A DNA stretch of 64,000 nucleotides from Escherichia coli (lineage in GTDB: Bacteria > Pseudomonadota > Gammaproteobacteria > Enterobacterales > Enterobacteriaceae), in the NCBI GenBank assembly GCA_031701365.1, contig GCA_031701365.1_4118.1; one strand, 5' to 3'. Numbering within the stretch: the first letter of the stretch is position 1; every line of letters begins with the position of its first letter. Both the position numbers and the translations under genes were made by a program. The notes beneath the pieces were generated by a model. It had not been told where the DNA came from. It saw only the letters and a program-made list of their open reading frames with translations, and did no database searches. Positions 89-63,320 of the stretch are shown one piece after another.

Positions 89-673
89 ATGCGTAACTAT
101 ACTAAATTCATCCGTTCACTTCATGCAATGGAAACTAATAAAGAGATCCTTACAGCTTGTCGGTTAGCTGGTCTGGAGATCGTCGGTGCGGGTTCTTCCC
201 GTATTGTATTCGCTTTAAATGATCGGTTAGTGATTAAGGTCGCTAATAGTGATGCTGGCGTAGATCAAAATGAAACTGAATGTAAGGTATGGAATTTTTT
301 AGATTATGACCGTCCGCACCTTAAACAGTACTTTGCAAAGGTGCATATGCATTTATGCGATCCTGATAATCTGTTTATTGTTATGGATCGTTTGAGTATT
401 GCAAGCAAAGGTAGTGCAAAGCACATAACGGCCTGTAATGAATTAAAGTACAATGCTAAACGTAAAACTATTGAACGCCAACACCATTTTGCCGATGCAC
501 TACAACACGTCGATGATACATTATCAACACTAACGATCATTGATATCAGCAAGACGAACATAGGCCAGGATCGCAACGGCTTGATTAAAGTACTTGATTA
601 CGGTTTAACCCGCAATATCTGGAATCAGTACTATAAAAAGCGTGATGTAAAAACCGTAACAATAACACGATAA
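89..673 (+). CDS. putative protein kinase-like protein
   Basis: ORF 32-673; likely start ATG 89 after AAGGAG. Gly-rich loop GAGSSRIVF, VIKV lysine, DISKTNIGQD catalytic-loop-like and DYG (DFG-like) motifs. Confidence 0.45.
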   Translation: MRNYTKFIRSLHAMETNKEILTACRLAGLEIVGAGSSRIVFALNDRLVIKVANSDAGVDQNETECKVWNFLDYDRPHLKQYFAKVHMHLCDPDNLFIVMDRLSIASKGSAKHITACNELKYNAKRKTIERQHHFADALQHVDDTLSTLTIIDISKTNIGQDRNGLIKVLDYGLTRNIWNQYYKKRDVKTVTITR

Positions 674-5808: not shown

Positions 5809-6062
5809 AACACTTAACACAAGATGAATATTCACTTAGAATTCGAAAGCTCACCCCAGAAGCAAGAGTAATCTACGATGACGATGCACTTTCATGGAAC
5901 GAGATGAAAGTTAAAGTTCATGAGCTATGGTTGCTGTACTTTGTGGGAACCCAATATCAAGAGAAATATTGTACCGATTATCTTGAACAACTAATGGATC
6001 TTATACAGATAAAACTAAATGAACGAATTGTGGAAAAATATGAAAACTTTATCAAGCACTGA
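5799..6062 (+). CDS. family A small protein 9
   Basis: VGTQYQEKYC; C-terminal extension past usual IK.KL end. Confidence 0.6.
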   Translation: MQMKHLTQDEYSLRIRKLTPEARVIYDDDALSWNEMKVKVHELWLLYFVGTQYQEKYCTDYLEQLMDLIQIKLNERIVEKYENFIKH

Positions 6063-6291
6063 GTATCAAACTGCCCTCTTCTCCCTTCTAAACACTCTCC
6101 GCACGAACAATAAACTTTATAATTCCCGTGAAGCTGATATTGTCAACGGTGAACTTTATCTTATGAAATTCATTGGAACAAACTATCAAGATCTGTTCAT
6201 TCAACGATACCTGGCAGCATTGAGAAACGAAATATCAGATAAAACCCGCCAAGCCAGAAGAGAATGGAAGAAACAATGCGACAAAGACTAA
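6019..6291 (+). CDS. family A small protein 10
   Basis: IGTNYQDLFI; start uncertain (6019 or 6040). Confidence 0.55.
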   Translation: MNELWKNMKTLSSTEYQTALFSLLNTLRTNNKLYNSREADIVNGELYLMKFIGTNYQDLFIQRYLAALRNEISDKTRQARREWKKQCDKD

Positions 6292-16744: not shown

Positions 16745-17296
16745 ATGAGTTCAATGAGTTTATTAGATACATTAGAAAAAGACAGAAGTGCAATTAAGCG
16801 TTTAAAAGAGCAAGTACAAAAGATTGTATACAACGTTGATAAGTTTGAGGTTCCCGGAAGATTTGGTGATATTTCCCATACGGAGATCAAATCCCTTAAG
16901 TCAGATTTGTTGATTAAAAATAAAAATGGGTTGATTTTAGTTTTGAGTTCAGATATGATGGGGGCAACACATAGTTATAATGCCGTATCGGTGCGTTCCG
17001 AGTGTGAAGGTATATATCTATCACAGGGTTTCAATAGCGAGACACAGGTTTGTTTTTGTGATGCAGTACATGACCCTATGAAGTTCACGAGAAGTGAAGC
17101 CCAAGCGTTATTAGAGCTATCAGACGAGAGTTTGTTTCAGTACAGTACAATGTATGACAATGATAAGATTCGTTGTATGTACGCTGTAAAGCATTATACA
17201 CAGGAGTTTTCTGGATTTGCATACCTTTTAGTTAGAACCAATACCAGATATATTGATATGTTAGAAGATTACATCGATAAAGTTGTTAATGTATGA
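16745..17296 (+). CDS. family B protein 14
   Basis: ESLFQYSTMYD; start ATG 16745 after AAGGA. Confidence 0.6.
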   Translation: MSSMSLLDTLEKDRSAIKRLKEQVQKIVYNVDKFEVPGRFGDISHTEIKSLKSDLLIKNKNGLILVLSSDMMGATHSYNAVSVRSECEGIYLSQGFNSETQVCFCDAVHDPMKFTRSEAQALLELSDESLFQYSTMYDNDKIRCMYAVKHYTQEFSGFAYLLVRTNTRYIDMLEDYIDKVVNV

Positions 17297-17308
17297 TTTT
17301 GTGATGGG

Positions 17309-17488
17309 ATGATGCTAATGAAAGAGTTATTTGAAGATCAGTTCAATACATATGTGGATAATATTCTTTATTCCAGTCGTGCCAGTCAACGAGGAAATCG
17401 TGCTTACAATATTGATTACCTATTAGTGGTGCTGAGTTCACAGTACACCAATGCGGTACAAAGGGTTTATTATGAAAAGTGCAAGTAA
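17309..17488 (+). CDS. hypothetical small protein (59 aa, not in ORF track)
   Basis: Hand-translated MMLMKELFEDQF...VYYEKCK. Confidence 0.35.
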   Translation: MMLMKELFEDQFNTYVDNILYSSRASQRGNRAYNIDYLLVVLSSQYTNAVQRVYYEKCK

Positions 17489-17681
17489 TAGTGATATTGC
17501 AAAGGAGAAGTTTAAGTGCAGTTTAGATTACGGTTTAAATAATTTTCTTACATGCACAATGTACAGGGATGATGATTATGAACAATCCGTAATTTCGTTG
17601 CACAGATATTTCGAAATAATTTACGCAAGATATCTTAGAAGGTTAGATGGGATAGGGGATTGGAATTATGATTACGTTTGA
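17472..17681 (+). CDS. hypothetical small protein
   Basis: ORF 17451-17681; likely start ATG 17472. Confidence 0.4.
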   Translation: MKSASNSDIAKEKFKCSLDYGLNNFLTCTMYRDDDYEQSVISLHRYFEIIYARYLRRLDGIGDWNYDYV

Positions 17682-17892
17682 AGAGCCGGAAGTGGTATAT
17701 TGCTTTAGTGTGAAAGGTTTTGAATACATGATGGATTCGATTTTGAAGGATACATATTTGGTTCAGATTGCAGTTGCACATAATGCAGATAATGCATTAC
17801 AGCGAGTATTGAATATATACGAGAGGACGAGTCGAAGGCTTTGTGCAATGAAAAGGATTGAAGAAATAAAGGTTTCTAGGCTGAATAAATAG
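17668..17892 (+). CDS. hypothetical small protein
   Basis: ORF only. Confidence 0.4.
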   Translation: MITFEEPEVVYCFSVKGFEYMMDSILKDTYLVQIAVAHNADNALQRVLNIYERTSRRLCAMKRIEEIKVSRLNK

Positions 17893-18090
17893 AGACGTTT
17901 CATTTTGACAGGCCGCTGGAGGGGGTCAAAAAAATTTCCGCTGAAAAACATGCTAAGGTATATGTTTAATATAAAGTTTTATATTGTGTTTTTCAGAGTA
18001 CAGTTCATGTTTCCTTAAACAAAAAATACCCCGCCACCGAACGTGCTCTTTATATTGGAGTTTACCTTATTAATTATAGTAGAGATTGAG

Positions 18091-18468
18091 ATGGAAATAA
18101 AATATAATGAATTTTGTGCAAGGACATGGATGTACACTGGTGAGTTAGTTACGCACTCTAACTTATACAAGGGTGATTTAAACTACGCTAGGGACAAGAT
18201 TTTAAAGTACTGGAATGCTGACTTTTATTTGATGGATTTTAGTACTGGGTTTAGGGGTAAAGCAACCGAGATGTTGGACTATACAGTACTTGATGATGCT
18301 GCACTGTTTCAGGCGGCATTAGTATTTGATAAGAAGTACATCTGTACATTAGAAGAGATGATTGAATTACAGCGTAGAATTAAATGTATTCACAGGGAAT
18401 GTATAGATATCTGGTGCAGTACTGGTGAAGATGATTTTTGTAATCATTTCAATCTAGGGGAAGAGTGA
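18091..18468 (+). CDS. family B protein 15
   Basis: AALFQAALVFDKKYICTLEE; start ATG 18091. Confidence 0.6.
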   Translation: MEIKYNEFCARTWMYTGELVTHSNLYKGDLNYARDKILKYWNADFYLMDFSTGFRGKATEMLDYTVLDDAALFQAALVFDKKYICTLEEMIELQRRIKCIHRECIDIWCSTGEDDFCNHFNLGEE

Positions 18469-21060: not shown

Positions 21061-21490
21061 AAAAGCAAAAGAACTACATGGATACGTTGAAGATATAAAG
21101 GCAGAAAAGTTCAAAGAAGTGTACAAAGCCGAGAACGGTAACTACTACAAAGATGAAATGTATAATAACTCCGTTGGAGTAAGGGTTATTCTTGGGTTGA
21201 ATTCCAATAGCCCAGTGTCGTATTCGGAATACAATAGAGATGCAGAATTCATTAGTTATGTTGAAAATGGTAGCATTCGTTTTATTAATAGACAAAAACC
21301 ATTAACATTGAATTGTGAAGTACTGAATGGTCCGTGGAATAGTGAAGAGTATTACTTCCAAAACAGTACTGTATATGATGATGAAGTACTTGAAGCATTA
21401 GTTATTATGTGGTACTTCAAGAGTGTTAGCTGTCCTCGATTTTATTTGGATTTCGAAGAACTTCGTAAAGATCCAGAAGGTATAGAATGA
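21038..21490 (+). CDS. family B protein 22
   Basis: EEYYFQNSTVYD; N-terminus MSLQSALEKAKE. Confidence 0.65.
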   Translation: MSLQSALEKAKELHGYVEDIKAEKFKEVYKAENGNYYKDEMYNNSVGVRVILGLNSNSPVSYSEYNRDAEFISYVENGSIRFINRQKPLTLNCEVLNGPWNSEEYYFQNSTVYDDEVLEALVIMWYFKSVSCPRFYLDFEELRKDPEGIE

Positions 21491-21801
21491 AAAACTTATT
21501 CAGTGTTCAGTACGTCCCTGGTGAAATTGGTTTATTATATCTATTTGACCATGATAATTCATTATTACTAGTAGTGAAGAAATGCCAAGCTAGTTCGTTT
21601 GTTGAATACATTCACGATAGTGAATACATTCCTGATTTCCTAGAGTGTGATTATCACGATGAACATGAATCATTTATTTTTCAGGAATCACTAGTATGGG
21701 ATAAATCGATCAACTTCTTTACGTTAATTGAATTACAAAAGCAGGTGAAGTATTATTGGGATTACTTAATTACACAGGATTACATTGAGATTGAAACATA
21801 A
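21487..21801 (+). CDS. family B protein 23
   Basis: ESFIFQESLVWD. Confidence 0.6.
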   Translation: MKNLFSVQYVPGEIGLLYLFDHDNSLLLVVKKCQASSFVEYIHDSEYIPDFLECDYHDEHESFIFQESLVWDKSINFFTLIELQKQVKYYWDYLITQDYIEIET

Positions 21802-49749: not shown

Positions 49750-50013
49750 ATGAATATCCAAGATAGATTACAATTACTGTACACACTTGAACAGGCTGCT
49801 TTTGAACTTGTTCGAAAAATATCAGATGAACTACCTAAAGGAACTAAAGTTCGTGTACGTGAGATGAATTATTTTTCTGGAGTAATTGAAGAACAAGTAC
49901 TAACAGTGAATAAAGTAACATACTATGAATCTGAGTTGTCTATTCAGTGTGAATCGGATGATGGATTAATATCATATTATGGAACTGATGTAGATATAGA
50001 GGTAATAAAATGA
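49750..50013 (+). CDS. family D-like small protein
   Basis: ORF 49705-50013, start ATG 49750; SDELPKGTKVRV. Confidence 0.5.
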   Translation: MNIQDRLQLLYTLEQAAFELVRKISDELPKGTKVRVREMNYFSGVIEEQVLTVNKVTYYESELSIQCESDDGLISYYGTDVDIEVIK

Positions 50014-51152
50014 CCCTTTTACAAATATATGAAGATTTAATGCACTTATGTAATACAAACGATGCATTCTTTTATGTGGATCATAAAAGTCCTGCTGGTG
50101 GCACGTATCGTGTATTCAGTTATCGCCTAGCATCATACACTGATTTCATGCAACCAAATGCGTTGGAAACCCGTGGCTCTATGTGGGAAATTGATGAAGA
50201 AGGTGACATGATACGTTGTGCAGCACGTACAATGAAAAAGTTCTTCAATGCTTACGAGAATCCTGCTACAATGTTCCCTGCTAACACCACATGCGATGAC
50301 ATTGCGGTCGTGATGCCTAAGTTGGATGGTTCGATTATCAGTACTTATCGTGATAATGATGGTGAGATTCGTTGTAAATCACATACTGCATTGTATTCTG
50401 ACCATGCGATTAACAGTACTCGACTTATTAACGAGAACCAGAATTTGTATCAGTACATCGACGAAGCGGAACGTTTAGGTTACACAGTTAATATGGAGTA
50501 TACAAGCCCAGAGTACCGAATTGTATTACCATATCAGGTAGAACAACTGTTTGTACTGAACGTTCGACATCGTGTGAGTGGTGAGTTGCTATGTGGTAAA
50601 GCACTACGTGATAAGTTTCCATGTCTTGCACAGTACAGTACTAATATGACCGGAAAAGATATTCATCACACTTTTCCGGTACGAAATACCTTCCGTGAAA
50701 GCGTGGAGGAAGTTCATAAAATGCTTGATATTGAGGGTTTTGTGTGCATCCTAAATAATGGGACAATGTGTAAAATAAAAACTGACTGGTACAGTTCATT
50801 ACATCTTACAAAAGATAGTATTATTATTGATTCTCATTTATATGAAGCCGTATTAAATGGTTCAAGTGATGATTTAAAACAATTGTTCAGTACTGATGAA
50901 TATGCTATGCAAAAGATATTAAGAATGGAACATTTGGTATTTTCGTGCTATAATGCATTACAAGATGAAGTAGAAAGCTTCGTCAAGGAACACAAGCACT
51001 TGGAGCGAAAGGAATTCGCAATGAAGGTTCAGGAGTGTTTAACTAATGAACTGAATCGTCAGGGCTTGGCCTTTGCAATGTATAACAATAAGAAAGTTGA
51101 TTACAAAGAGACTCTTATAAAATACATGAAAATTGTACTAAAGGATTTTTAG
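50010..51152 (+). CDS. rnlA: RNA ligase 1 (T4 Rnl1 homolog)
   Basis: Recalled alignment to T4 Rnl1 over N-terminal region (FFY..D, GxxYRxFSY, ALExRG, MPKLDGS), including lysine-nucleotidyltransferase KxDG motif. Confidence 0.9.
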   Translation: MTLLQIYEDLMHLCNTNDAFFYVDHKSPAGGTYRVFSYRLASYTDFMQPNALETRGSMWEIDEEGDMIRCAARTMKKFFNAYENPATMFPANTTCDDIAVVMPKLDGSIISTYRDNDGEIRCKSHTALYSDHAINSTRLINENQNLYQYIDEAERLGYTVNMEYTSPEYRIVLPYQVEQLFVLNVRHRVSGELLCGKALRDKFPCLAQYSTNMTGKDIHHTFPVRNTFRESVEEVHKMLDIEGFVCILNNGTMCKIKTDWYSSLHLTKDSIIIDSHLYEAVLNGSSDDLKQLFSTDEYAMQKILRMEHLVFSCYNALQDEVESFVKEHKHLERKEFAMKVQECLTNELNRQGLAFAMYNNKKVDYKETLIKYMKIVLKDF

Positions 51153-52248: not shown

Positions 52249-53181
52249 ATGCCAACTATTACACTAACAGTTGGATTACCTGGGTGTGGAAAAACCACAT
52301 GGGCAGTTCAAGAAATTAAAAATGCCAAATCGAAGACTATCAACATTAACCGTGATGACATTCGAGAATCAATGGCAGGGTCACATGATGCATACAAATT
52401 CAACGACGCTAATGAGCAGTACGTAACTAAAATGCAGTTCAGTGCAGCAAATTCAGCAGCAGAGAATGGTTGGAACATCATTGTGTCCGATACGAACCTT
52501 AAACAACATTTCCGTGATGAATGGAAACGTTGGGCTAAAGATAATGAATACGACTACAAAGAAAAGAACTTCTACGAAGATTTTGTACCGAATGAAGATC
52601 GTGGTGCAGATGTTCATGTTTTCTTTAAGATTAAAGAGTTCGTAAAACTTTGTAAGAAACGTAACCTCATGCGTGAGCGTTCAGTACAAGATAATATCAT
52701 TGACACTATGGCAGATACGTACTATTATAGTAAGGCCATGCACATTGGTTACTATGGTAATTCACGAGAAGCTGCTATCATCGTTGATATCGATGGAACT
52801 CTTGCTCATAAATGGGGGCGTAACCCGTTCGATGAAAGTACTGTTCTTCAGGATACACCTGATGAAGAAGTTATTTTGTCTATTATCGCTGAAGCAGTTT
52901 TTCATAAACGCAAGATTATCGTCATGAGTGGGCGTACTGAAGGGTGTCGTGCTGATACCGAACAGTGGCTTAAGAATTGGGGTGTTCCTTACGATGCATT
53001 GTTTATGCGAGATATCGATGATAAACGTCCTGATGATGTTGTAAAATTCGACCTGTACATGAAAAATGTGGTTGATCATTACGATGTTAAAAAGGTATAT
53101 GATGACCGAGCACAAGTCGTATTCATGTGGCGTAAGCTACTTGGCTTGAAAGTTTTTCAAGTTGCAGAAGGAAATTTCTAA
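52249..53181 (+). CDS. pseT: polynucleotide 5-prime kinase / 3-prime phosphatase (T4 Pnk homolog)
   Basis: P-loop GLPGCGKTTWA and INRDD kinase motifs; HAD phosphatase DIDGTLA motif; C-terminal WQVAxGxF as in T4 Pnk. Confidence 0.9.
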   Translation: MPTITLTVGLPGCGKTTWAVQEIKNAKSKTININRDDIRESMAGSHDAYKFNDANEQYVTKMQFSAANSAAENGWNIIVSDTNLKQHFRDEWKRWAKDNEYDYKEKNFYEDFVPNEDRGADVHVFFKIKEFVKLCKKRNLMRERSVQDNIIDTMADTYYYSKAMHIGYYGNSREAAIIVDIDGTLAHKWGRNPFDESTVLQDTPDEEVILSIIAEAVFHKRKIIVMSGRTEGCRADTEQWLKNWGVPYDALFMRDIDDKRPDDVVKFDLYMKNVVDHYDVKKVYDDRAQVVFMWRKLLGLKVFQVAEGNF

Positions 53182-53186
53182 TACAA

Positions 53187-53218
53187 AAGGGATCATATGT
53201 TGGTCCCTTTTTCTTTTA
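53187..53218 (+). terminator. rho-independent terminator
   Basis: AAGGGATCA-tatgt-TGGTCCCTT followed by TTTCTTTT. Confidence 0.65.
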
Positions 53219-54869: not shown

Positions 54870-55196
54870 GTGAATGGTTCGTTTTTAACAATTTTAGAAA
54901 AGACATCCGAGATGCTTTCTAGTTCGTTAATGCACATTTTCAGTACTAATAATTTATACAATACCCAGGTGTTAGATTCAATTAGTAATAACTATGTGGT
55001 AAGTATATCTGATGAAATATGTCCATTTAATGCGTATACGAATTATAGTGTAGAAGAGTTTCATATATCCGAGATTCGATGTGGTTTTGGTGCTTGGTTA
55101 GTTCTAAATGAACGTTCAGGGACGTCTTTATACATCGAAGAAATTGATAAATTTATATACAAAGGAGTAGAATATGTTAACCCCAATCATTCTTAG
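54870..55196 (+). CDS. hypothetical protein
   Basis: ORF; start uncertain. Confidence 0.45.
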   Translation: MNGSFLTILEKTSEMLSSSLMHIFSTNNLYNTQVLDSISNNYVVSISDEICPFNAYTNYSVEEFHISEIRCGFGAWLVLNERSGTSLYIEEIDKFIYKGVEYVNPNHS

Positions 55197-55803
55197 CAGT
55201 GCATATGTAATCGGTATTATTATTTCTGGTATGCTTGCATATAACTATAACAGAAGTGTTATAGGTTATGTAGTACTTGGTACAGTACTAAGTCCAGTGA
55301 TTGCTATTGGTCTTCTTGTTATGCTAGGTGAGAAAAATACAAGCTTCTTTATTACTAAAGAACTTGATAAAATCACCCCAGCACCAGAAACAGTTATTCC
55401 AGAAGTTAAAGAAGAAGTTAAAGAAGTTGAAGTTCAAATGCAAGTTAAAGTGTATAATACACTTGAAGAAACTGACCCTAAAGTTGTAGTGAATGTAGTT
55501 CCAGTCGTTGAAGAGGTGAAACCAAAAGCTCCTAAAGTACAGAAAAATACTAAAACTGCAAAGAAAGCTCGTTACACTAAAGGTAAGAACAAAGGTAAAT
55601 CTAAGGATGAACCACAACTAGGTGTTCATGACCATACTGCACAAATTGCAACGGCAGCGACCGCAGCAGCAATCGTAACATCACCAATCTACAACAATGA
55701 TGATTACAGTGATTATAGCCGTCACAGCAGTTCTTCCTCTGATTCTTGTTCCTATGATAGCTCTAGTTCTGATTCAAGTTCATCTTCTGGAAGTTGTGAT
55801 TAA
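55174..55803 (+). CDS. membrane protein with charged repeat region and Ser/Asp-rich tail
   Basis: Two N-terminal hydrophobic helices, KEEVKEV/KPKAPK charged segment, C-terminal SSSSSDSCSYDSSSSDSSSSSGSCD. Confidence 0.6.
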   Translation: MLTPIILSSAYVIGIIISGMLAYNYNRSVIGYVVLGTVLSPVIAIGLLVMLGEKNTSFFITKELDKITPAPETVIPEVKEEVKEVEVQMQVKVYNTLEETDPKVVVNVVPVVEEVKPKAPKVQKNTKTAKKARYTKGKNKGKSKDEPQLGVHDHTAQIATAATAAAIVTSPIYNNDDYSDYSRHSSSSSDSCSYDSSSSDSSSSSGSCD

Positions 55804-56132
55804 TGTCAATGAAACCACTAATTCAACATAATATTTTTTATAGGTCATTATTCAAAATTCAAGATGATTTTTATCAGACGTTGAGTAATGATCTTATAGG
55901 TAAAACTGTACGATATTCGGAACAATACATCAAACGTATGACAAGTCAGTATATTGACCCTGAATACGAATACGACATTGAACACATTAATCCCAATACT
56001 AGAATGAAAATCATTGAGATATTTAAGAATGGGAGAACTATAGGTGCTGAAATTGAGTACTTGAATTGTGATTGTTACATAGATACAGAGTTGAGTTTGG
56101 ATTATCTTGTTTTAGTGGATGATGAGGAATAA
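55803..56132 (+). CDS. family D-like small protein
   Basis: SNDLIGKTVRY. Confidence 0.5.
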   Translation: MSMKPLIQHNIFYRSLFKIQDDFYQTLSNDLIGKTVRYSEQYIKRMTSQYIDPEYEYDIEHINPNTRMKIIEIFKNGRTIGAEIEYLNCDCYIDTELSLDYLVLVDDEE

Positions 56133-56134
56133 TT

Positions 56135-56350
56135 ATGATAACATTTTTCGCAATATATGGATTTGTAGCATTTGTTACATTTATAACCAACTTTCTAGTA
56201 CTTAATTGGGGTTGTTTTAAAGATGAAATCATGATTATCATGAATCTCCAAACAGCAGCACTGATGGCTATTATTTGGCCTGTAACGTTAGTATATATTT
56301 TTATTTCACTTACCCAAGATATTATTAACAAATATAAGAGAAAGAAATAA
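56135..56350 (+). CDS. small membrane protein
   Basis: Two hydrophobic segments (FFAIYGFVAFVTFITNFLVL, ALMAIIWPVTLVYIFI). Confidence 0.55.
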   Translation: MITFFAIYGFVAFVTFITNFLVLNWGCFKDEIMIIMNLQTAALMAIIWPVTLVYIFISLTQDIINKYKRKK

Positions 56351-56601
56351 TGTTCAACAACGACTTATCACATTTGCGATATCTTATGTCTTTGGCTGAT
56401 GATTTTATAAATGATCTGAAGCCAAAATATATTGGTCAAGAAGTACGATTAATAAACTCCAGAGGGTATGGAAAATATATTATTACTGATATGTATATTA
56501 GTGGTGGTGAATGGCGTTTTAAAATTAATACTTATCTTAAAGATGGTTCTTTTGCTGGAACACAAGTTACTAAACACACTAATATTATATGGTTGGAGTA
56601 A
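56350..56601 (+). CDS. family D-like small protein
   Basis: DLKPKYIGQEVRL. Confidence 0.55.
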   Translation: MFNNDLSHLRYLMSLADDFINDLKPKYIGQEVRLINSRGYGKYIITDMYISGGEWRFKINTYLKDGSFAGTQVTKHTNIIWLE

Positions 56602-56603
56602 TA

Positions 56604-57347
56604 ATGAAACATTTCTTAGAAGTAACCGTACCTGATGATAAAGATTTATACATTGTAGGTGATTTGCATGGTAATGGTAAACTATGGGATGCTACAGTGA
56701 AAGAATTTGGTATTACACACAATGATTATGTTTTCAGTGTAGGTGATATTATCGACCGTGGAGAACAAAATTCAAAGCTCCTTTTTGAATTTTTGTTCGG
56801 AGAAAATCGTTACATGATTGCGGGTAATCATGAGATGATGTGCGTTGATTCGGAAACACTTCGAGATTGGTATCATTGTTGGATAAGTAATGGTGGTGAT
56901 AAATTCCTTGATGAAGTTGGAGGAACAGGCATTCAATTCTTTCGTCAGTACTTAAAAGATCTCCCTATGATTATCCAAATCAATCACCGAGGCTTGAAGA
57001 TTGGGTTAGTTCATGCTGGAGTTCCGTTGGAATATACAACATGGGAACGATTTGTTAATGGGACAAAATCACTTAGTGCTGATATAATTGATAAGTGCTT
57101 GTGGGATAGGAAAACATTCGATTATTGTAGAACGAATAATACCTATTATGCACCTAAGTTAGATGGAGTGCATTGTGTCTTTAGTGGACATACAGCAGTT
57201 ACTGATCCACTCATTTATGGTAATCGCATTTGGATTGATAGTCAATTCTTGACGGGTGACTTAACTCTCGCTACTCCACAAAGTGGTGGGATGAGATACT
57301 TACGTAAAGAAAAAGATGAGTACTCATTCAATCGTTTCAAAAGGTAA
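56604..57347 (+). CDS. Ser/Thr protein phosphatase (PPP/lambda-phosphatase-type metallophosphatase)
   Basis: GDLHG, GDxxDRG and GNHE motifs; ORF 56589 with start ATG 56604 after GGAG. Confidence 0.8.
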   Translation: MKHFLEVTVPDDKDLYIVGDLHGNGKLWDATVKEFGITHNDYVFSVGDIIDRGEQNSKLLFEFLFGENRYMIAGNHEMMCVDSETLRDWYHCWISNGGDKFLDEVGGTGIQFFRQYLKDLPMIIQINHRGLKIGLVHAGVPLEYTTWERFVNGTKSLSADIIDKCLWDRKTFDYCRTNNTYYAPKLDGVHCVFSGHTAVTDPLIYGNRIWIDSQFLTGDLTLATPQSGGMRYLRKEKDEYSFNRFKR

Positions 57348-57352
57348 TAATT

Positions 57353-57622
57353 ATGCATGATGAAGTTAAAAAATATTTGAATGATAGATATATTATGAAA
57401 AAATCTATTAATTCTATCCTAAAAGATCATGCTAATCAAATACGTGAGATTCTATCAAATAAACTTATTGGTTGTTCAGTTGAGTTCAATTACAAAAAGA
57501 ATGTAGTGAAGATTGGAGTTATTAAACGTGTAGTTGCTGTTTATGACCAAAATGTATATGTTGAAATTGAATATGATGGTAAATTATCACAATTAAGTAC
57601 TGAAGATTTAACATTTTTATAA
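57353..57622 (+). CDS. family D-like small protein
   Basis: SNKLIGCSVEF. Confidence 0.5.
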   Translation: MHDEVKKYLNDRYIMKKSINSILKDHANQIREILSNKLIGCSVEFNYKKNVVKIGVIKRVVAVYDQNVYVEIEYDGKLSQLSTEDLTFL

Positions 57623-57632
57623 GGAAATAGAA

Positions 57633-57860
57633 ATGAAAGTAATTCAAGTTATGGTAGAAAAATACCAAACTGAAGATGGTCGTATTTTTGATTCAGCTAA
57701 ACAAGCTGAACACCATGAACGTATTATTTCGGGTGCACGTAAAGTGTGTCCTACATGTAGTGGAACACAACAAGTACCGTCAGAAGATTACCGCAGCTTT
57801 TATGCTTGTCCACACTGTGATGGGAAAGGCTATGTAGAAAAACAAGAGGTATGGAAATGA
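57633..57860 (+). CDS. small zinc-finger protein (DnaJ-type CxxCxGxG-like)
   Basis: CPTCSGTQ and CPHCDGKG motifs. Confidence 0.6.
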   Translation: MKVIQVMVEKYQTEDGRIFDSAKQAEHHERIISGARKVCPTCSGTQQVPSEDYRSFYACPHCDGKGYVEKQEVWK

Positions 57861-58270
57861 AATTGTATTGCTTAACTAATATGTACTGTCAAGGTGTCCA
57901 AGCTGGTATTCAAGCATTCCATGCTGGTGTTAAACTAATTAAAGAATATGAAGGTACTGCTTTCAGTACTATTATTGATGAATGGTACTATGAACACGAA
58001 ACTATTGTAGTACTAAATGCTGGTGGACATGATAAATTAAATTCTTATTATAACAACCTTAGCAAACAGGGGAAAGTTCCGTTTGCCAAATTCAATGAAG
58101 CTGGGTTGAATGATGCTATTACCTGTGTAGCAGTACTGTGTACGTCTGAAATGATTGAAGACATGGCTGTTATGCGTATGAATCTTCCTGCTGGTGATCA
58201 ACTAATGCAAGTAAAATATGGTGCATTGTTTGACACACTAAAAGCAATCAGTACAATGAGGACTATTTGA
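57857..58270 (+). CDS. hypothetical protein
   Basis: ORF 57851-58270; ATGA overlap start 57857. Confidence 0.55.
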   Translation: MKLYCLTNMYCQGVQAGIQAFHAGVKLIKEYEGTAFSTIIDEWYYEHETIVVLNAGGHDKLNSYYNNLSKQGKVPFAKFNEAGLNDAITCVAVLCTSEMIEDMAVMRMNLPAGDQLMQVKYGALFDTLKAISTMRTI

Positions 58271-59469
58271 TGGATTTTCCAGAGAAGTTATTTGTTGCAC
58301 GTTCCTATGTAAACCACAACCAAGTTGATGGTTTTATTATCGATGCAACAAAATCACATACAAAAGCGTTTGAAACAAAGAAAGAGAGAGCAGAGTACTG
58401 GGCAAAGAAGAACAATCTTCCATCGTTATATATTGACAACGTTCCAACTACTGGATTTTGTGTAGTTGATAAATTAACAATTCATGCACGAGAAACATAT
58501 TTCACAATCCGTCACCCAGAAGGATTTGAATTTATGATTAGTGCCAAAAACATGAATGATTTAATTATCAATAACGATATAATCAAAGGTGTTTTTGTAG
58601 ACCCAATGTTTTTCAACAATAACTTAGAATTAATTAATGGTAAAACAAAAACATTTGCTAAGTTAGTTGAAAAAGAAAATAAAAAAGAACAACAAAAAGA
58701 AACTGTAGCAGGTCTTAAAGTTGGTGATGGTTTCACGTATCTCAAAGAAGATTACTATTACTGCGGTAAAGTACATGCAATTTGTATAAAGAAAACTAAA
58801 GAATTTGCATACCCCGACAAAAGTTCTGTTTATCATTTACTTTTTAACAGTACTCGTGGAACTTATGCATTGAATCAACGTTTGGATAATTACAATCTTG
58901 AACCTCGTGCACTCTTGAATAAGAAGACTACGGCAGATGAAGAAATTAAACTTGCTAATGAATTTTGGCAAAGCTATAGAACAAACAGACATAACCCATT
59001 AGGTGAATCTAACATTCCAGTACTGGTACACAATAAATCATTTAAAGCAAAAGACCTAAAAATTAAATATGAAGAAATAAATGTTGATGATCTTATGAAT
59101 AATGGACGTTTCAACGAGAACGTACCATTTATGACTAAAGATAATGAACAATCTTATCGCGTATTTTTTGGTGTAAGTAATAATACAACACGTAGTTATT
59201 ATGGACGTAGCGGGGATTATAATATTCATTATAATGATAAATTTGAACGCTTTAGTGCATACCCAGTTCAAATTGATGATAATGGAATTATGTCAATGGA
59301 TGTTGATATTAATGAGCACACATCATTTAGTACATGGAACGGTTATCGTTCACCATTCTTTCCACCAAATGAACGAAAAACATCAAGTTCTCGTTACTAC
59401 CAAGATAAGCCGTGTCACGTTCAACTATCAATTAGTAATCCACTTTATATTGGAAAGTATTATCTATAA
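58270..59469 (+). CDS. hypothetical protein (399 aa)
   Basis: ORF 58267-59469; ATG 58270 overlapping upstream stop. Confidence 0.65.
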   Translation: MDFPEKLFVARSYVNHNQVDGFIIDATKSHTKAFETKKERAEYWAKKNNLPSLYIDNVPTTGFCVVDKLTIHARETYFTIRHPEGFEFMISAKNMNDLIINNDIIKGVFVDPMFFNNNLELINGKTKTFAKLVEKENKKEQQKETVAGLKVGDGFTYLKEDYYYCGKVHAICIKKTKEFAYPDKSSVYHLLFNSTRGTYALNQRLDNYNLEPRALLNKKTTADEEIKLANEFWQSYRTNRHNPLGESNIPVLVHNKSFKAKDLKIKYEEINVDDLMNNGRFNENVPFMTKDNEQSYRVFFGVSNNTTRSYYGRSGDYNIHYNDKFERFSAYPVQIDDNGIMSMDVDINEHTSFSTWNGYRSPFFPPNERKTSSSRYYQDKPCHVQLSISNPLYIGKYYL

Positions 59470-59480
59470 AGGAATATACA

Positions 59481-60899
59481 ATGAGCATTTTAGCAATTCT
59501 TGAAAGCATTAAAAATACTAGCAGTACTCTAGGCAAAAAAGCTATTCTTGAACAAAATAAAGATAATGTAACTTTGCAAAAAGTACTGAAATATACACTC
59601 GATCCTAGTATTGTAAGTGGGTATAAAAAGCTACCAGACGCTGATAACGTGTATCAACATATGACATTGGATGAAGCTATTGATAAACTAGAATGCATCT
59701 ATAAGCGTGCATTGACGGGACATACAGGGCGTGATTTCATTGCTTCAGTACTAGGTAGTGTGAGTCCAGATGATGCTGAAGTTCTTCGTAAGATGCTTAC
59801 AAAGAACTTAGATTGTGGTATTCAAGAAAAGAACTGCAATGATGTATTTGGTAAAGGATTTATTAAAGATGAACCATATATGCGTTGTTCTTTGCTTGAT
59901 AAAAAGACTGTTAAGAACATCAACTTCAAAGGTCATGGTTATGCTGTCTCCGAGGTCAAGATGGATGGTCAGTACTTAAACCATGTAGTCATTAATGGTG
60001 CTCTTACCTCTTCCTCCCGTAATGGTAAACTATATGACTTCTTAGGTTGTCGTGATGGTGAGATGGCAGGTCTTGCACATCAAATTCAAATGAATGATGA
60101 ACGTTTTAGTAGTGGTGTCGTCTTTATGGGTGAAGGTCTAGTACTTGATAATGACGGTGAAACTATTCTTCCACGAACAACTGGTAATGGTATCATTCAG
60201 AAGGCTGGTAAAGATAGTATTAGTCAGAATGAAGCAATGCGTACTGTATTTGTACTATGGGATGTTGTTCCGTATGATGCATTCTGTGAAGGTACATGGA
60301 ATGTAAAACGTAAAGAACGTCGCGAACTTCTTGAATCTGCCATCAATGTATTGGGTAGTGATTTTGTACGTATGGTGAAATACCGTAAGGTTCAAAACAT
60401 TAAAGAAGCATTTGAGTACAATAACGAACTCATGGTTCAGGGTGAAGAAGGATCAGTACTGAAATGTGAAGATGGTATCTGGAAATCACATACATCTCCT
60501 AAGCAGTTGAAAGTAAAACTAAAAATGCAATTGGATTTGCGTATTGTTGGTTTCAACGAAGGTGAAGGTAAGCGTAAAGGTTCACTTGGTTCTTTACAAC
60601 TTGAAAGTGCATGTGGCACACTGAAGGTAAATGTAGGAACAGGTATTAAAGAGAAAGATGCAGAGTGGACGTTCAAAACCATTTGGGAACGAATGCAAGA
60701 ACTAATTGGTAAAGTCGTTACCGTTGAGTGCAATGAGATTGTAATCGACAAGCGTACAGGTGAACCATCACTATTTTTACCAGTGTTTATTGAATTTAGA
60801 TTTGACAAGAACACATGTGACGATTATACTCGTATTTTAGAAATTCGTGATAGTGCTGTTGAGGTATTCTCGAACAGTATCATTGAAGCACTTAGCTAA
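59481..60899 (+). CDS. ATP-dependent DNA ligase (T4 gp30 homolog)
   Basis: N-terminus aligns with T4 DNA ligase as recalled (GxKAILEQNKDN), adenylation-site KMDGQ (KxDG) and further T4-ligase-like blocks. Confidence 0.9.
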   Translation: MSILAILESIKNTSSTLGKKAILEQNKDNVTLQKVLKYTLDPSIVSGYKKLPDADNVYQHMTLDEAIDKLECIYKRALTGHTGRDFIASVLGSVSPDDAEVLRKMLTKNLDCGIQEKNCNDVFGKGFIKDEPYMRCSLLDKKTVKNINFKGHGYAVSEVKMDGQYLNHVVINGALTSSSRNGKLYDFLGCRDGEMAGLAHQIQMNDERFSSGVVFMGEGLVLDNDGETILPRTTGNGIIQKAGKDSISQNEAMRTVFVLWDVVPYDAFCEGTWNVKRKERRELLESAINVLGSDFVRMVKYRKVQNIKEAFEYNNELMVQGEEGSVLKCEDGIWKSHTSPKQLKVKLKMQLDLRIVGFNEGEGKRKGSLGSLQLESACGTLKVNVGTGIKEKDAEWTFKTIWERMQELIGKVVTVECNEIVIDKRTGEPSLFLPVFIEFRFDKNTCDDYTRILEIRDSAVEVFSNSIIEALS

Positions 60900-60918
60900 T
60901 CATTTATTGGAGGTAATT

Positions 60919-61710
60919 ATGAAATTTGTTGTAACATCTGACGTACACGGTGGAACTGATTACCTCCATAGCGGTGATTACAGTGATGTAGTACTGATCA
61001 TTGCTGGTGACTTTGATGAAGTTAAACGCAGTCGTTATCGTACTGGGATCGAAGAACTGTGTAAGCAGTTCTATAAGGTAGTACTGGTTCCAGGAAATCA
61101 CGAATACTACGGTTCCAATATCCAAAAGACGCATCAAGTACTATCCAATATGCAGGATGAGATTCCTAATTTTATCTTTTTGCAAAACAAATTTGTATGG
61201 CTGGATGGAGTACTGCTTGTTGGTAGTACTCTGTGGACAGACTTCGATAAAGGTAATTCTTTGACGAAGTTTGATGCTCGTCAGAAGATGAACGATTACA
61301 AACATATCCGTCATGGAACAACATCAGAGCCTTGGCGTAAGAAACTGACACCTGATGATACTGAGTTTATGCATCACAAAGATAAACAATTTATCAAAAA
61401 TTCTATTGACACAGTTCGCTTTATGCATGATAATGATTTCAAGGTCATCGTGATTACTCATCACGCACCAAGTTATCAAAGTGTTTCACCAAAATATAAA
61501 AATGATTCACTAAATGGTTGTTACTGTTCCGATATGGATCAGTACATTGAAGATTTGGGTGCTGATGTTTGGATTCATGGTCATGTTCATAGTAGCTTTG
61601 ACTACCACATTGGTAAGACACGTATCATTTGTAATCCACGAGGCTATGAATCGTATAGTGGAGCTTGTGAGAATTTTGATTACAATCCTAAATTTGTATT
61701 TGAAATTTAA
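60919..61710 (+). CDS. metallophosphoesterase (calcineurin-like)
   Basis: SDVHG, GDFDE, GNHEYYG and GHVH motifs; ORF 60847 with start ATG 60919 after GGAGG. Confidence 0.8.
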   Translation: MKFVVTSDVHGGTDYLHSGDYSDVVLIIAGDFDEVKRSRYRTGIEELCKQFYKVVLVPGNHEYYGSNIQKTHQVLSNMQDEIPNFIFLQNKFVWLDGVLLVGSTLWTDFDKGNSLTKFDARQKMNDYKHIRHGTTSEPWRKKLTPDDTEFMHHKDKQFIKNSIDTVRFMHDNDFKVIVITHHAPSYQSVSPKYKNDSLNGCYCSDMDQYIEDLGADVWIHGHVHSSFDYHIGKTRIICNPRGYESYSGACENFDYNPKFVFEI

Positions 61711-61722
61711 TGTGAGGATACA

Positions 61723-62106
61723 GTGTCATTGATTTATTTTGAACTACCAGAATATACCAATTATCCAAGCCGAGTTATTTGCTCAGTTTATAGTAATGCA
61801 TATCATCACTTGTTAGTGAATAGTAATAAAGCTGTGCATTATTATCGAAATAAAGAACCACGTACATTAAAGAATCGTTATGGTTTTGACCCAACTAACA
61901 CTGAAGTTGAACTCTGTGATCTGTTTGGGGAAGTAATGGTGGTGTTGAAACGAGATATTCATCTTTTCCATACATACAAACTTAATCAGTACTTTATGGA
62001 AACACTGTCTATACGTTCCCATGCTCCGATGATTAAAGTTGATTTGAATTTTGTTGATGATAAATTGAAATATGATTTCATAAATTCACTTGTTTATTTG
62101 GAGTAA
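61723..62106 (+). CDS. hypothetical protein
   Basis: ORF with probable GTG start after GAGG. Confidence 0.5.
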   Translation: MSLIYFELPEYTNYPSRVICSVYSNAYHHLLVNSNKAVHYYRNKEPRTLKNRYGFDPTNTEVELCDLFGEVMVVLKRDIHLFHTYKLNQYFMETLSIRSHAPMIKVDLNFVDDKLKYDFINSLVYLE

Positions 62107-62107
62107 T

Positions 62108-62512
62108 ATGAATATACGTTCAGTACGAATATTTTCATTTGTTGATATGAATGAAAAACACTCTTATGTGTTTGAAACTGTCAATAAGTTAAATCCTCAT
62201 ACGGCAAAAATGATTGAAACCATGAAGATCTTGAGTTTGCATATAGAAGTTTACTATCTTCATGACGATTCTGTTTTTGTATATGATGATGGATGGTATG
62301 ACGGTGTGTTTTATGATGACATTAGCACTACTGCTGATTACTACTTTCTAGTGAGTAACCCACTATTCAGTACTAAAACTTTGTTTGACATTACCGATAC
62401 AAGCGTGTATGATACAAGTCATGTTGAGTTACTTAAGTTTGATCCAGTATTATTCAACAAAGAAACGGCGTATTGGATGACTGATTTCTTTTCAAATATT
62501 CCAGTAAAATAG
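62108..62512 (+). CDS. hypothetical protein
   Basis: ORF 62090-62512, start ATG 62108 after GGAG. Confidence 0.55.
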   Translation: MNIRSVRIFSFVDMNEKHSYVFETVNKLNPHTAKMIETMKILSLHIEVYYLHDDSVFVYDDGWYDGVFYDDISTTADYYFLVSNPLFSTKTLFDITDTSVYDTSHVELLKFDPVLFNKETAYWMTDFFSNIPVK

Positions 62513-62576: not shown

Positions 62577-63272
62577 ATGGTTGAACAATTCATGTTTGGT
62601 GGTTATGCTAATGGCGAAGTACGTAACATTTCTATTCCTTACGTAGTTGAGAAAGTTAATGGTTCAGAACGTACATATGATCTAGCATCTCGTATGATGC
62701 AAGACCGTATCATTTTCCTTGATACTGATTTCAATGATCAAATGGCACATATCATCAAACAACAATTGGTGTGGTTAGACTCACAAGGTGATTCCCCTAT
62801 TACATTCTACATTAGTTCACCAGGTGGTTCAGTACACGCAGGTTTGGGTATTGCAGACGTTGCTAAGTCTTGTATTTCCCCAATCCGCACTGTAGTTATG
62901 GGTTATGCGGCATCAATGGGTTGCTATACACAATCTGTTATTGGAACTAAAGGTTTCCGTTTAGGTGGTAAACGCTCATACTTCATGTGTCACCAAGTAA
63001 GTTCTGGTACACAAGGTCTAATTACAGACCAGAAGATTTCCCTACAACATTCTGATGCACTGAATACATTGTTGACCAAAGAAATTGCAGAAGCAGTAGG
63101 CGTATCACATGAACAATTACTAAAAGATGCTGACCGCGATTTGTGGTTAAATGCAGAAGAAGCACTTGAATATGGTGAACATGGTTTCATTGATGGTATT
63201 ATTCTTGGACCACGTAACGAAGAAGGCAAGTACTTAGTTAAGCGTCGCGGCGGTGTGGAAGAGTGGGTGTAA
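62577..63272 (+). CDS. clpP: ClpP-like serine protease (peptidase S14)
   Basis: SPGGSV, GYAASMG (catalytic Ser), MCHQ (His) and DADRDLWLNAEEALEYG matching bacterial ClpP blocks. Confidence 0.85.
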   Translation: MVEQFMFGGYANGEVRNISIPYVVEKVNGSERTYDLASRMMQDRIIFLDTDFNDQMAHIIKQQLVWLDSQGDSPITFYISSPGGSVHAGLGIADVAKSCISPIRTVVMGYAASMGCYTQSVIGTKGFRLGGKRSYFMCHQVSSGTQGLITDQKISLQHSDALNTLLTKEIAEAVGVSHEQLLKDADRDLWLNAEEALEYGEHGFIDGIILGPRNEEGKYLVKRRGGVEEWV

Positions 63273-63320
63273 GATAGATTTTGATGCCTCAATATGGGGC
63301 ATCATCTTTGTGGAGATTAT

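Follow-up and report, generated by a model that had tools for sequence, protein, structure and literature searches.

Why should a DNA ligase gene lie between two metallophosphatase genes, and does this position reveal what the two enzymes act on? The question is raised by a 64,000-nucleotide stretch of DNA (the window) from contig GCA_031701365.1_4118.1 of the Escherichia coli assembly GCA_031701365.1. There, a first-pass annotation had placed a PPP-type Ser/Thr phosphatase at 56604-57347 and a calcineurin-like phosphoesterase at 60919-61710, bracketing the ligase region, and had read in them, together with a kinase-like open reading frame (ORF), a hint of phage control of host phosphorylation or of nucleotide-signal hydrolysis, for instance of cyclic-nucleotide defence signals. 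Both ORFs, here named P1 and P2, respectively, are real plus-strand genes; each matches Pfam Metallophos, and P1 and P2 further match PHROG 246 and PHROG 1649. The family calls were right, whereas the functional story drew no support from any computed result: nothing found ties P1 or P2 to the DNA ligase or to the destruction of immune signals. The explanation that we favour, with rather better than even confidence for the whole of it, is that P1 and P2 are two independent enzymes in an accessory/repair block.

Over the 6.5 kb at 56000-62500, identity is 99.2% to Escherichia phage 121Q (Asteriusvirus, 348,532 bp) and 95% to about 20 further Rak2-like jumbo coliphages and Salmonella phages. Both metallophosphatase ORFs are present with identical boundaries in the RefSeq record of 121Q, as gp455 ('NinI-like serine-threonine phosphatase') and gp461 ('metallo-phosphoesterase'), and the ligase is named there as gp460 ('DNA ligase'). 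Because RefSeq annotates gp455 and gp461 at the same coordinates, the observation was already public; both genes carry annotations in the published 121Q genome, and their families are common among phages. The kinase-like ORF is 90.7% identical to its 121Q counterpart, compared with 99.2% for the ligase region, and the source phage is therefore a mosaic relative of 121Q, not 121Q itself.

P1 is preceded by a Shine-Dalgarno sequence, GGAG, 6 nt before its ATG. It matches Pfam Metallophos with E = 5.3e-11 (43.7 bits, cut-off 21.5) and PHROG 246, 'NinI-like serine-threonine phosphatase', with E = 1.1e-65. The best phmmer match in the PDB is the lambda Ser/Thr phosphatase (1G5B, E = 2.7e-16), which aligns over nearly the full length, with ApaH and PP1 trailing at E of about 0.005. 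The predicted fold also matches lambda phosphatase, and the similarity in both sequence and fold exceeds that to other PPP/ApaH clades; P1 falls below the NCBIfam equivalog cut-offs for PrpA-type (63.2 against 326 bits), PrpB-type (53.7 against 332) and ApaH (32.2 against 176) proteins. The motifs GDxHG, GDxxDRG and GNH[E/D] are present as G19-D20-L-H22-G23, G47-D48-x-x-D51-R52-G53 and G74-N75-H76-E77, and when 20 homologues of 51-91% identity are aligned, all residues of these motifs are invariant but G23, which 90% or more retain. H137 and H196 do not vary in this alignment either, and R169, within WDR, is kept in at least 90%; phmmer aligns H137, R169 and H196 with the lambda sequences VHA, WNR and GHT (lambda H139, R162 and H186). 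P1 has counterparts of all the lambda phosphatase catalytic residues (D20, H22, D48, R52, N75, H76, H137, R169 and H196) and, with all metal ligands and phosphate-binding residues kept, looks catalytically intact. The hhalign probability between P1 and T5.035 was 99.96. Judged from these alignments, P1 is an ordinary member of the lambda-phosphatase/NinI family and an orthologue-grade relative of lambda NinI and T5.035. The family was detected by tblastn in 1,320 phage records, among them T5-like, rV5-like, lambda/Stx-like, P1 and Vibrio phages, and a locus search of the P1 alignment with clade-specific patterns recovered six loci, all of them Rak2-like.

Lambda phosphatase is a Mn2+-dependent protein phosphatase that also cleaves 2',3'-cyclic nucleoside monophosphates (cNMPs) vigorously and 3',5'-cNMPs weakly, and does not hydrolyse nucleoside 2'-, 3'- or 5'-monophosphates (PMC2190708). 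By analogy, P1 would be a Mn2+-dependent phosphomonoesterase that, in infection, dephosphorylates host (or phage) proteins at Ser, Thr, Tyr or His, perhaps with a cyclic-phosphodiesterase side activity like that of lambda phosphatase. We regard the protein-phosphatase role as about evenly balanced between true and false.

P2 also has a Shine-Dalgarno sequence 6 nt before its ATG (GGAGG), and it matches Pfam Metallophos (E = 2.1e-13, 51.6 bits, cut-off 21.5) and PHROG 1649, 'metallo-phosphoesterase' (E = 3.2e-72). The ligand motifs D8-x-H10, G30-D31, G59-N-H-E62, H181-H182 and G221-H-x-H224 are kept in 38 homologues of 36-88% identity; with N60, H222 and H224 also conserved, P2 carries the full binuclear metallophosphoesterase ligand set, including GHxH, and probably binds a binuclear Mn/Fe centre. 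The same homologues share the family-specific motifs TLWTD, MNDY, HHAPS and NPRGY. The family is found in many large myoviruses, Rak2-like ones among them; 201 phage records hold it, among them those of KVP40-like phages, of cyanomyophages and of phages of Rhizobium, Caulobacter and Brevundimonas, and it was also detected in no fewer than 585 viral contigs and, at 30-38% identity, in 447 or more bacterial loci. No NCBIfam model covers it. P2 thus appears to be an intact enzyme of a large family without an apparent characterised member, distributed over phages and bacteria. A match of P2 and its bacterial homologues to the PADLOC defence protein PDC-S10 spans the generic N-terminal half of the model only, and P2 was therefore not assigned to a defence system on this match.

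The closest solved fold to P2 is that of PptH, followed by aq_1956, TT1561 and MPPED2, and PptH is also the top PDB match of the P2-family profile (E = 4.7e-7). This ranking would accord with a phosphodiesterase that acts on a small or protein-linked phosphodiester, and not with a processive nuclease; diesterase chemistry as such seems likely to us. The fold might further suggest that P2 strips 4'-phosphopantetheine from the host holo-acyl-carrier protein and so halts or rewires host lipid synthesis. However, the profile match to PptH is limited to residues 5-71, the shared N-terminal metallophosphoesterase motifs, at 19% identity, and no carrier-protein or phosphopantetheinyl transferase gene neighbours P2 homologues in 80 viral and 80 bacterial loci. 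We consider such an attack on the acyl-carrier protein most unlikely. One lead that would have fitted the PptH fold was KVP40.0053 (5885-6130), annotated in GenBank in 2003 with the carrier-protein (phosphopantetheine-binding) family PF00550 and lying two genes from the P2 homologue KVP40.0051; it was dropped, as current Pfam finds no PP-binding match in it and no KVP40.0053 homologue occurs near other P2 genes. A 68-aa PptH fragment used as query retrieved N-terminal fragments 50-70% identical to the N-terminal part of M. tuberculosis PptH under the source names Streptomyces, Pseudonocardiales and Corynebacterium (all returned sequences being 118 aa or shorter), and PptH-like proteins may therefore exist beyond mycobacteria, contrary to the literature.

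The same comparisons bear on the idea that P2 degrades the host genome in the manner of mycobacteriophage A10ZJ24 Gp48, T5 A1 or Mre11/SbcD. The P2 profile gave hhalign probabilities of only 1.1 against Bxb1 gp47 (Gp48 family) and 0.8 against T5 A1, and P1 gave 0.6 against Bxb1 gp47. Mre11 and SbcD rank below PptH, aq_1956, TT1561, MPPED2 and Lmo2642 as fold relatives of P2, whose 263 aa leave no room for an Mre11-type capping domain, and a nuclease role is very unlikely.

The idea put forward by the first-pass annotation would mean that P1, P2 or both hydrolyse the cyclic mono-, di- or oligonucleotide messengers of cyclic-oligonucleotide-based antiphage signalling (CBASS), the pyrimidine-cyclase-based antiphage system (Pycsar), Thoeris or type III CRISPR and thereby weaken abortive infection. 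Class III cNMP phosphodiesterases belong to the superfamily, lambda phosphatase itself acts on cyclic nucleotides, as described above, and 121Q carries, 7-9 kb further downstream, Sir2 and Nudix genes, which belong to NAD-/nucleotide-conflict functions. A role of jumbo-phage calcineurin-like phosphodiesterases as enzymes against nucleotide signals was predicted by Iyer et al. (2021), who also proposed them in RNA repair (PMC7824862); as a hypothesis, signal degradation is therefore not new. P2 does fit the loose class III signature, D-Xn-GD-Xn-GNH[E/D]-Xn-H-Xn-GHXH, but this is common to PptH, GpdQ, Mre11 and others and therefore does not single out the class III enzymes. Against the proposal, the fold ranking favours PptH, and P2 has no curated membership of the CpdA family: P2 has no match to the NCBIfam CpdA model, its bacterial homologues reach 20-32 bits against a cut-off of 225, and no specific sequence or fold relationship of P2 to CpdA or Rv0805 was detected. 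Messenger hydrolysis by these proteins is, in our judgement, improbable.

As for the ligase, the bracketing described by the first-pass annotation holds closely on one side only. P2 starts 20 nt past the ligase stop, whereas P1 lies farther off on the upstream side, with 2.1 kb and four genes (gp456, gp457, gp458 and gp459) between its end and the ligase. Among the viral loci of P2 homologues, the commonest neighbours are a ligase (within 8 kb), a dCMP deaminase and ClpP (within 8 kb), each in 16 of the 80, and no partner gene occurs in more than 20%; Pnkp was found in eight, Rnl1 in four and a P1-like gene in three, which all belong to the Rak2-like clade. The ligase shares its strand with the P2 homologue in every case, at distances ranging from 4.3 kb upstream to 6.9 kb downstream, and tight ligase-P2 adjacency is confined to Rak2-like contigs. 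No neighbour is conserved in the bacterial loci either (best 9/80). Such a pattern would be expected from a shared layout of the early and nucleotide-metabolism regions of large myoviruses and not from operon-level functional coupling. GAP32 (Mimasvirus) retains the arrangement throughout: its phosphatase is followed by three genes and the ligase, then by a single gene and the metallophosphoesterase, and, after one more gene, by ClpP.

These counts also weigh on the possibility that P1, P2 or both heal nucleic acid ends, cleaning 2',3'-cyclic phosphates, 3'-phosphates or other blocked ends and thereby preparing cuts by host anticodon nucleases, or by other nucleases, for sealing by the phage RNA or DNA ligase. 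Ligases lie on either side of P2 homologues and at varying distances, 80% of the loci have no ligase within 8 kb, Pnkp and Rnl1 are infrequent, and the bacterial homologues have no ligase neighbour. The P1 family, for its part, is abundant in lambda-like, P1 and T5-like phages, and lambda is not known to have RNA-repair genes. Since lambda phosphatase is inactive on nucleoside monophosphates, it could not complete end healing alone, and the T4-type Pnkp in the window already has a 3'-end-healing HAD domain (PMC3592404). End healing by P1 or P2 is thus unlikely.

The preferred explanation can be put as follows. In a 121Q-like jumbo coliphage, a long co-directional accessory/repair block holds Rnl1, Pnkp, P1, a Pth2-like hydrolase, gp459, the ligase, P2 and ClpP, and P1 and P2 are independent, mutually distant enzymes of the calcineurin-like metallophosphoesterase superfamily. 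As part of this account, and with the same confidence somewhat above even, the placement of P1, ligase and P2 would be synteny inherited within the Rak2-like clade and not a functional three-gene module. Several points weigh against it. P2 follows the ligase stop by 20 nt and the gene order is kept in a genus whose P2 homologue is about 51% identical; both are compatible with co-expression and a functional link. With 19% identity and an N-terminal-only match, the substrate class of PptH is not transferable to P2, and a role of P1 on host proteins extrapolates from the in-vitro activity of lambda phosphatase.

The features of the region are listed in Table 1.

Table 1. Position and assignment of the features discussed, in order along the window
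Feature	Coordinates	Strand	Length	Matches and remarks
Kinase-like ORF (gp308)	89..673	+		
T4 Rnl1-type RNA ligase	50010..51152	+		Pfam RNA_lig_T4_1 E 9.2e-16; T4_Rnl1_C E 9.1e-17
T4-type polynucleotide kinase-phosphatase (Pnkp)	52249..53181	+		Pfam HAD_PNKP E 3.4e-43; AAA_33 E 4.4e-14
Terminator-like hairpin 3' of Pnkp	53185..53211	+		11-bp stem then T-run; consensus match only
Predicted membrane protein	55174..55803	+	209 aa	KE/V-rich middle; extremely Ser/Asp-rich C-terminal tail (SSSSSDSCSYDSSSSDSSSSSGSCD); no family match
P1, lambda-phosphatase/NinI-type binuclear metallophosphatase (121Q gp455)	56604..57347	+	247 aa	
gp456, small conserved protein	57353..57622	+		PHROG 38615 E 3.7e-59; no Pfam match
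gp457, DnaJ-type CXXCXGXG zinc-finger protein	57633..57860	+	75 aa	PHROG 12574; sub-threshold Pfam matches Anti-TRAP (E 1.6e-6) and DnaJ_CXXCXGXG (DnaJ central domain, E 9.6e-6)
gp458, Pth2-like (peptidyl-tRNA hydrolase 2 fold) hydrolase	57851..58270	+		Pfam PTH2 E 2.1e-5, 25.2 bits, barely above cut-off 23; PHROG 3668 'hydrolase' E 1.6e-45; no match in PDB sequence search
gp459, conserved protein directly 5' of ligase	58267..59469	+	400 aa	PHROG 14061 E 1.5e-202; neither Pfam nor PDB sequence match
gp460, ATP-dependent DNA ligase	59481..60899	+		Pfam DNA_ligase_A_M E 6.5e-13; PHROG 114 E 6.5e-119
P2, PHROG 1649 binuclear metallophosphodiesterase, PptH-like fold (121Q gp461)	60919..61710	+	263 aa	
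gp464, ClpP-like protease	62577..63272	+		Pfam CLP_protease E 4.2e-41; recurrent neighbour of P2-family genes
Terminator-like hairpin 3' of ClpP	63282..63304	+		10-bp stem, 5 GC pairs; consensus match only

The two hairpins are possible upstream and downstream boundaries of a co-directional block of about 10 kb; a promoter scan was uninformative, with 73 sites observed and 75 expected by chance. Upstream of P1, at 3.4-6.6 kb, Rnl1 and Pnkp, the latter with kinase and HAD phosphatase, make up a full tRNA-repair pair. The gene for gp458, whose start overlaps gp457 by 10 nt, belongs to the same strand run, and its presence there with Rnl1 and Pnkp hints at a translation-rescue or tRNA-repair theme in the block. 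A homologue of gp459, GAP32_098, occupies the equivalent position in GAP32. RefSeq labels gp464 'head maturation protease'; a further ClpP-like gene and one of the HslV type follow within a few kb downstream in 121Q, and the label may therefore be an over-call made from the PHROG name. A comparable layout is seen in T5 at 16916-18300 and 21154-21753, where two metallophosphoesterase genes, T5.034 ('phosphoesterase') and T5.035 (NinI-like phosphatase), are adjacent, with a ClpP-like protease, T5.042, a few kb off within that early region. T5.034 is not a homologue of P2, with which it shares nothing past the superfamily motifs.

The kinase-like ORF that the first-pass annotation had joined to the two phosphatases does have matches of the protein-kinase type, but all are sub-threshold and it lies 56 kb from P1. 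Pfam Pkinase gave E = 0.085 (12.7 bits against 31.7), and all eight sub-threshold PDB matches (E = 0.45-1.6) are protein kinases, aligned at the catalytic loop DxKxxN (DISKTN in the ORF) and at DFG (DYG). A kinase identity is plausible on these alignments. The ORF is confined to Rak2-like phages, in several of which the gene matches two places per genome; one relative's record has an annotated direct terminal repeat over the match, and some depositors label the gene a Ser/Thr kinase.

As it stands, the locus is of little importance, since its genes are annotated and their families common, and the result on the gp461 family is modestly useful. The sole residual novelty is PHROG 1649, a large family that lacks a studied member and has a PptH-like fold. 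That gp461 resembles PptH rather than the cNMP phosphodiesterases narrows the substrates worth testing, and cautions that not every phage 'calcineurin-like phosphoesterase' is an anti-CBASS or anti-Pycsar enzyme. P2 could conceivably represent a new class of counter-defence phosphodiesterase directed at a nucleotide messenger, or a PptH-like enzyme that frees a host protein of its phosphopantetheine or of some other prosthetic group held by a phosphodiester link; we think it quite unlikely that either holds, although either, if true, would be a new mechanism of phage takeover or anti-defence.

The first-pass annotation had advised a comparison with known phage phosphodiesterases. Among the known anti-signalling nucleases of phages, Acb1 has a 2H-type fold and Apyc1 a metallo-beta-lactamase fold, and both differ from the calcineurin-like metallophosphoesterase fold of P1 and P2. 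A10ZJ24 Gp48/Bxb1 gp47, an anti-defence nuclease, belongs to the same superfamily as P1 and P2, and so does T5 A1; both are encoded by phages and have been shown or suggested to act against the host (PMC12287305; PMC7824862). P1 and P2 are not specifically related to either (hhalign probabilities 0.6-1.1). From M. tuberculosis PptH (Rv2795c, 6UNC), P2 differs not only in sequence (19% identity) but also in setting, because PptH is paired with PptT in mycobacteria and no such gene context was found around P2; the class III cNMP phosphodiesterases (CpdA/Icc, Rv0805) and MPPED2 rank below PptH as its relatives. The phosphatase domain of the RNA-repair enzyme Pnkp of Clostridium thermocellum (4J6O) is fused to kinase and ligase modules, whereas P1 stands alone and matches PHROG 8238 (tri-domain 'RNA ligase') at E = 1.3e-6, compared with 1.1e-65 for the NinI family. 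Lambda phosphatase (NinI, 1G5B) lies in the nin region of lambda, whereas P1 belongs to a jumbo lytic phage; P1 is a mere 25% identical to it and is longer by about 25 residues, among them a C-terminal tail that is kept across the Rak2-like clade.

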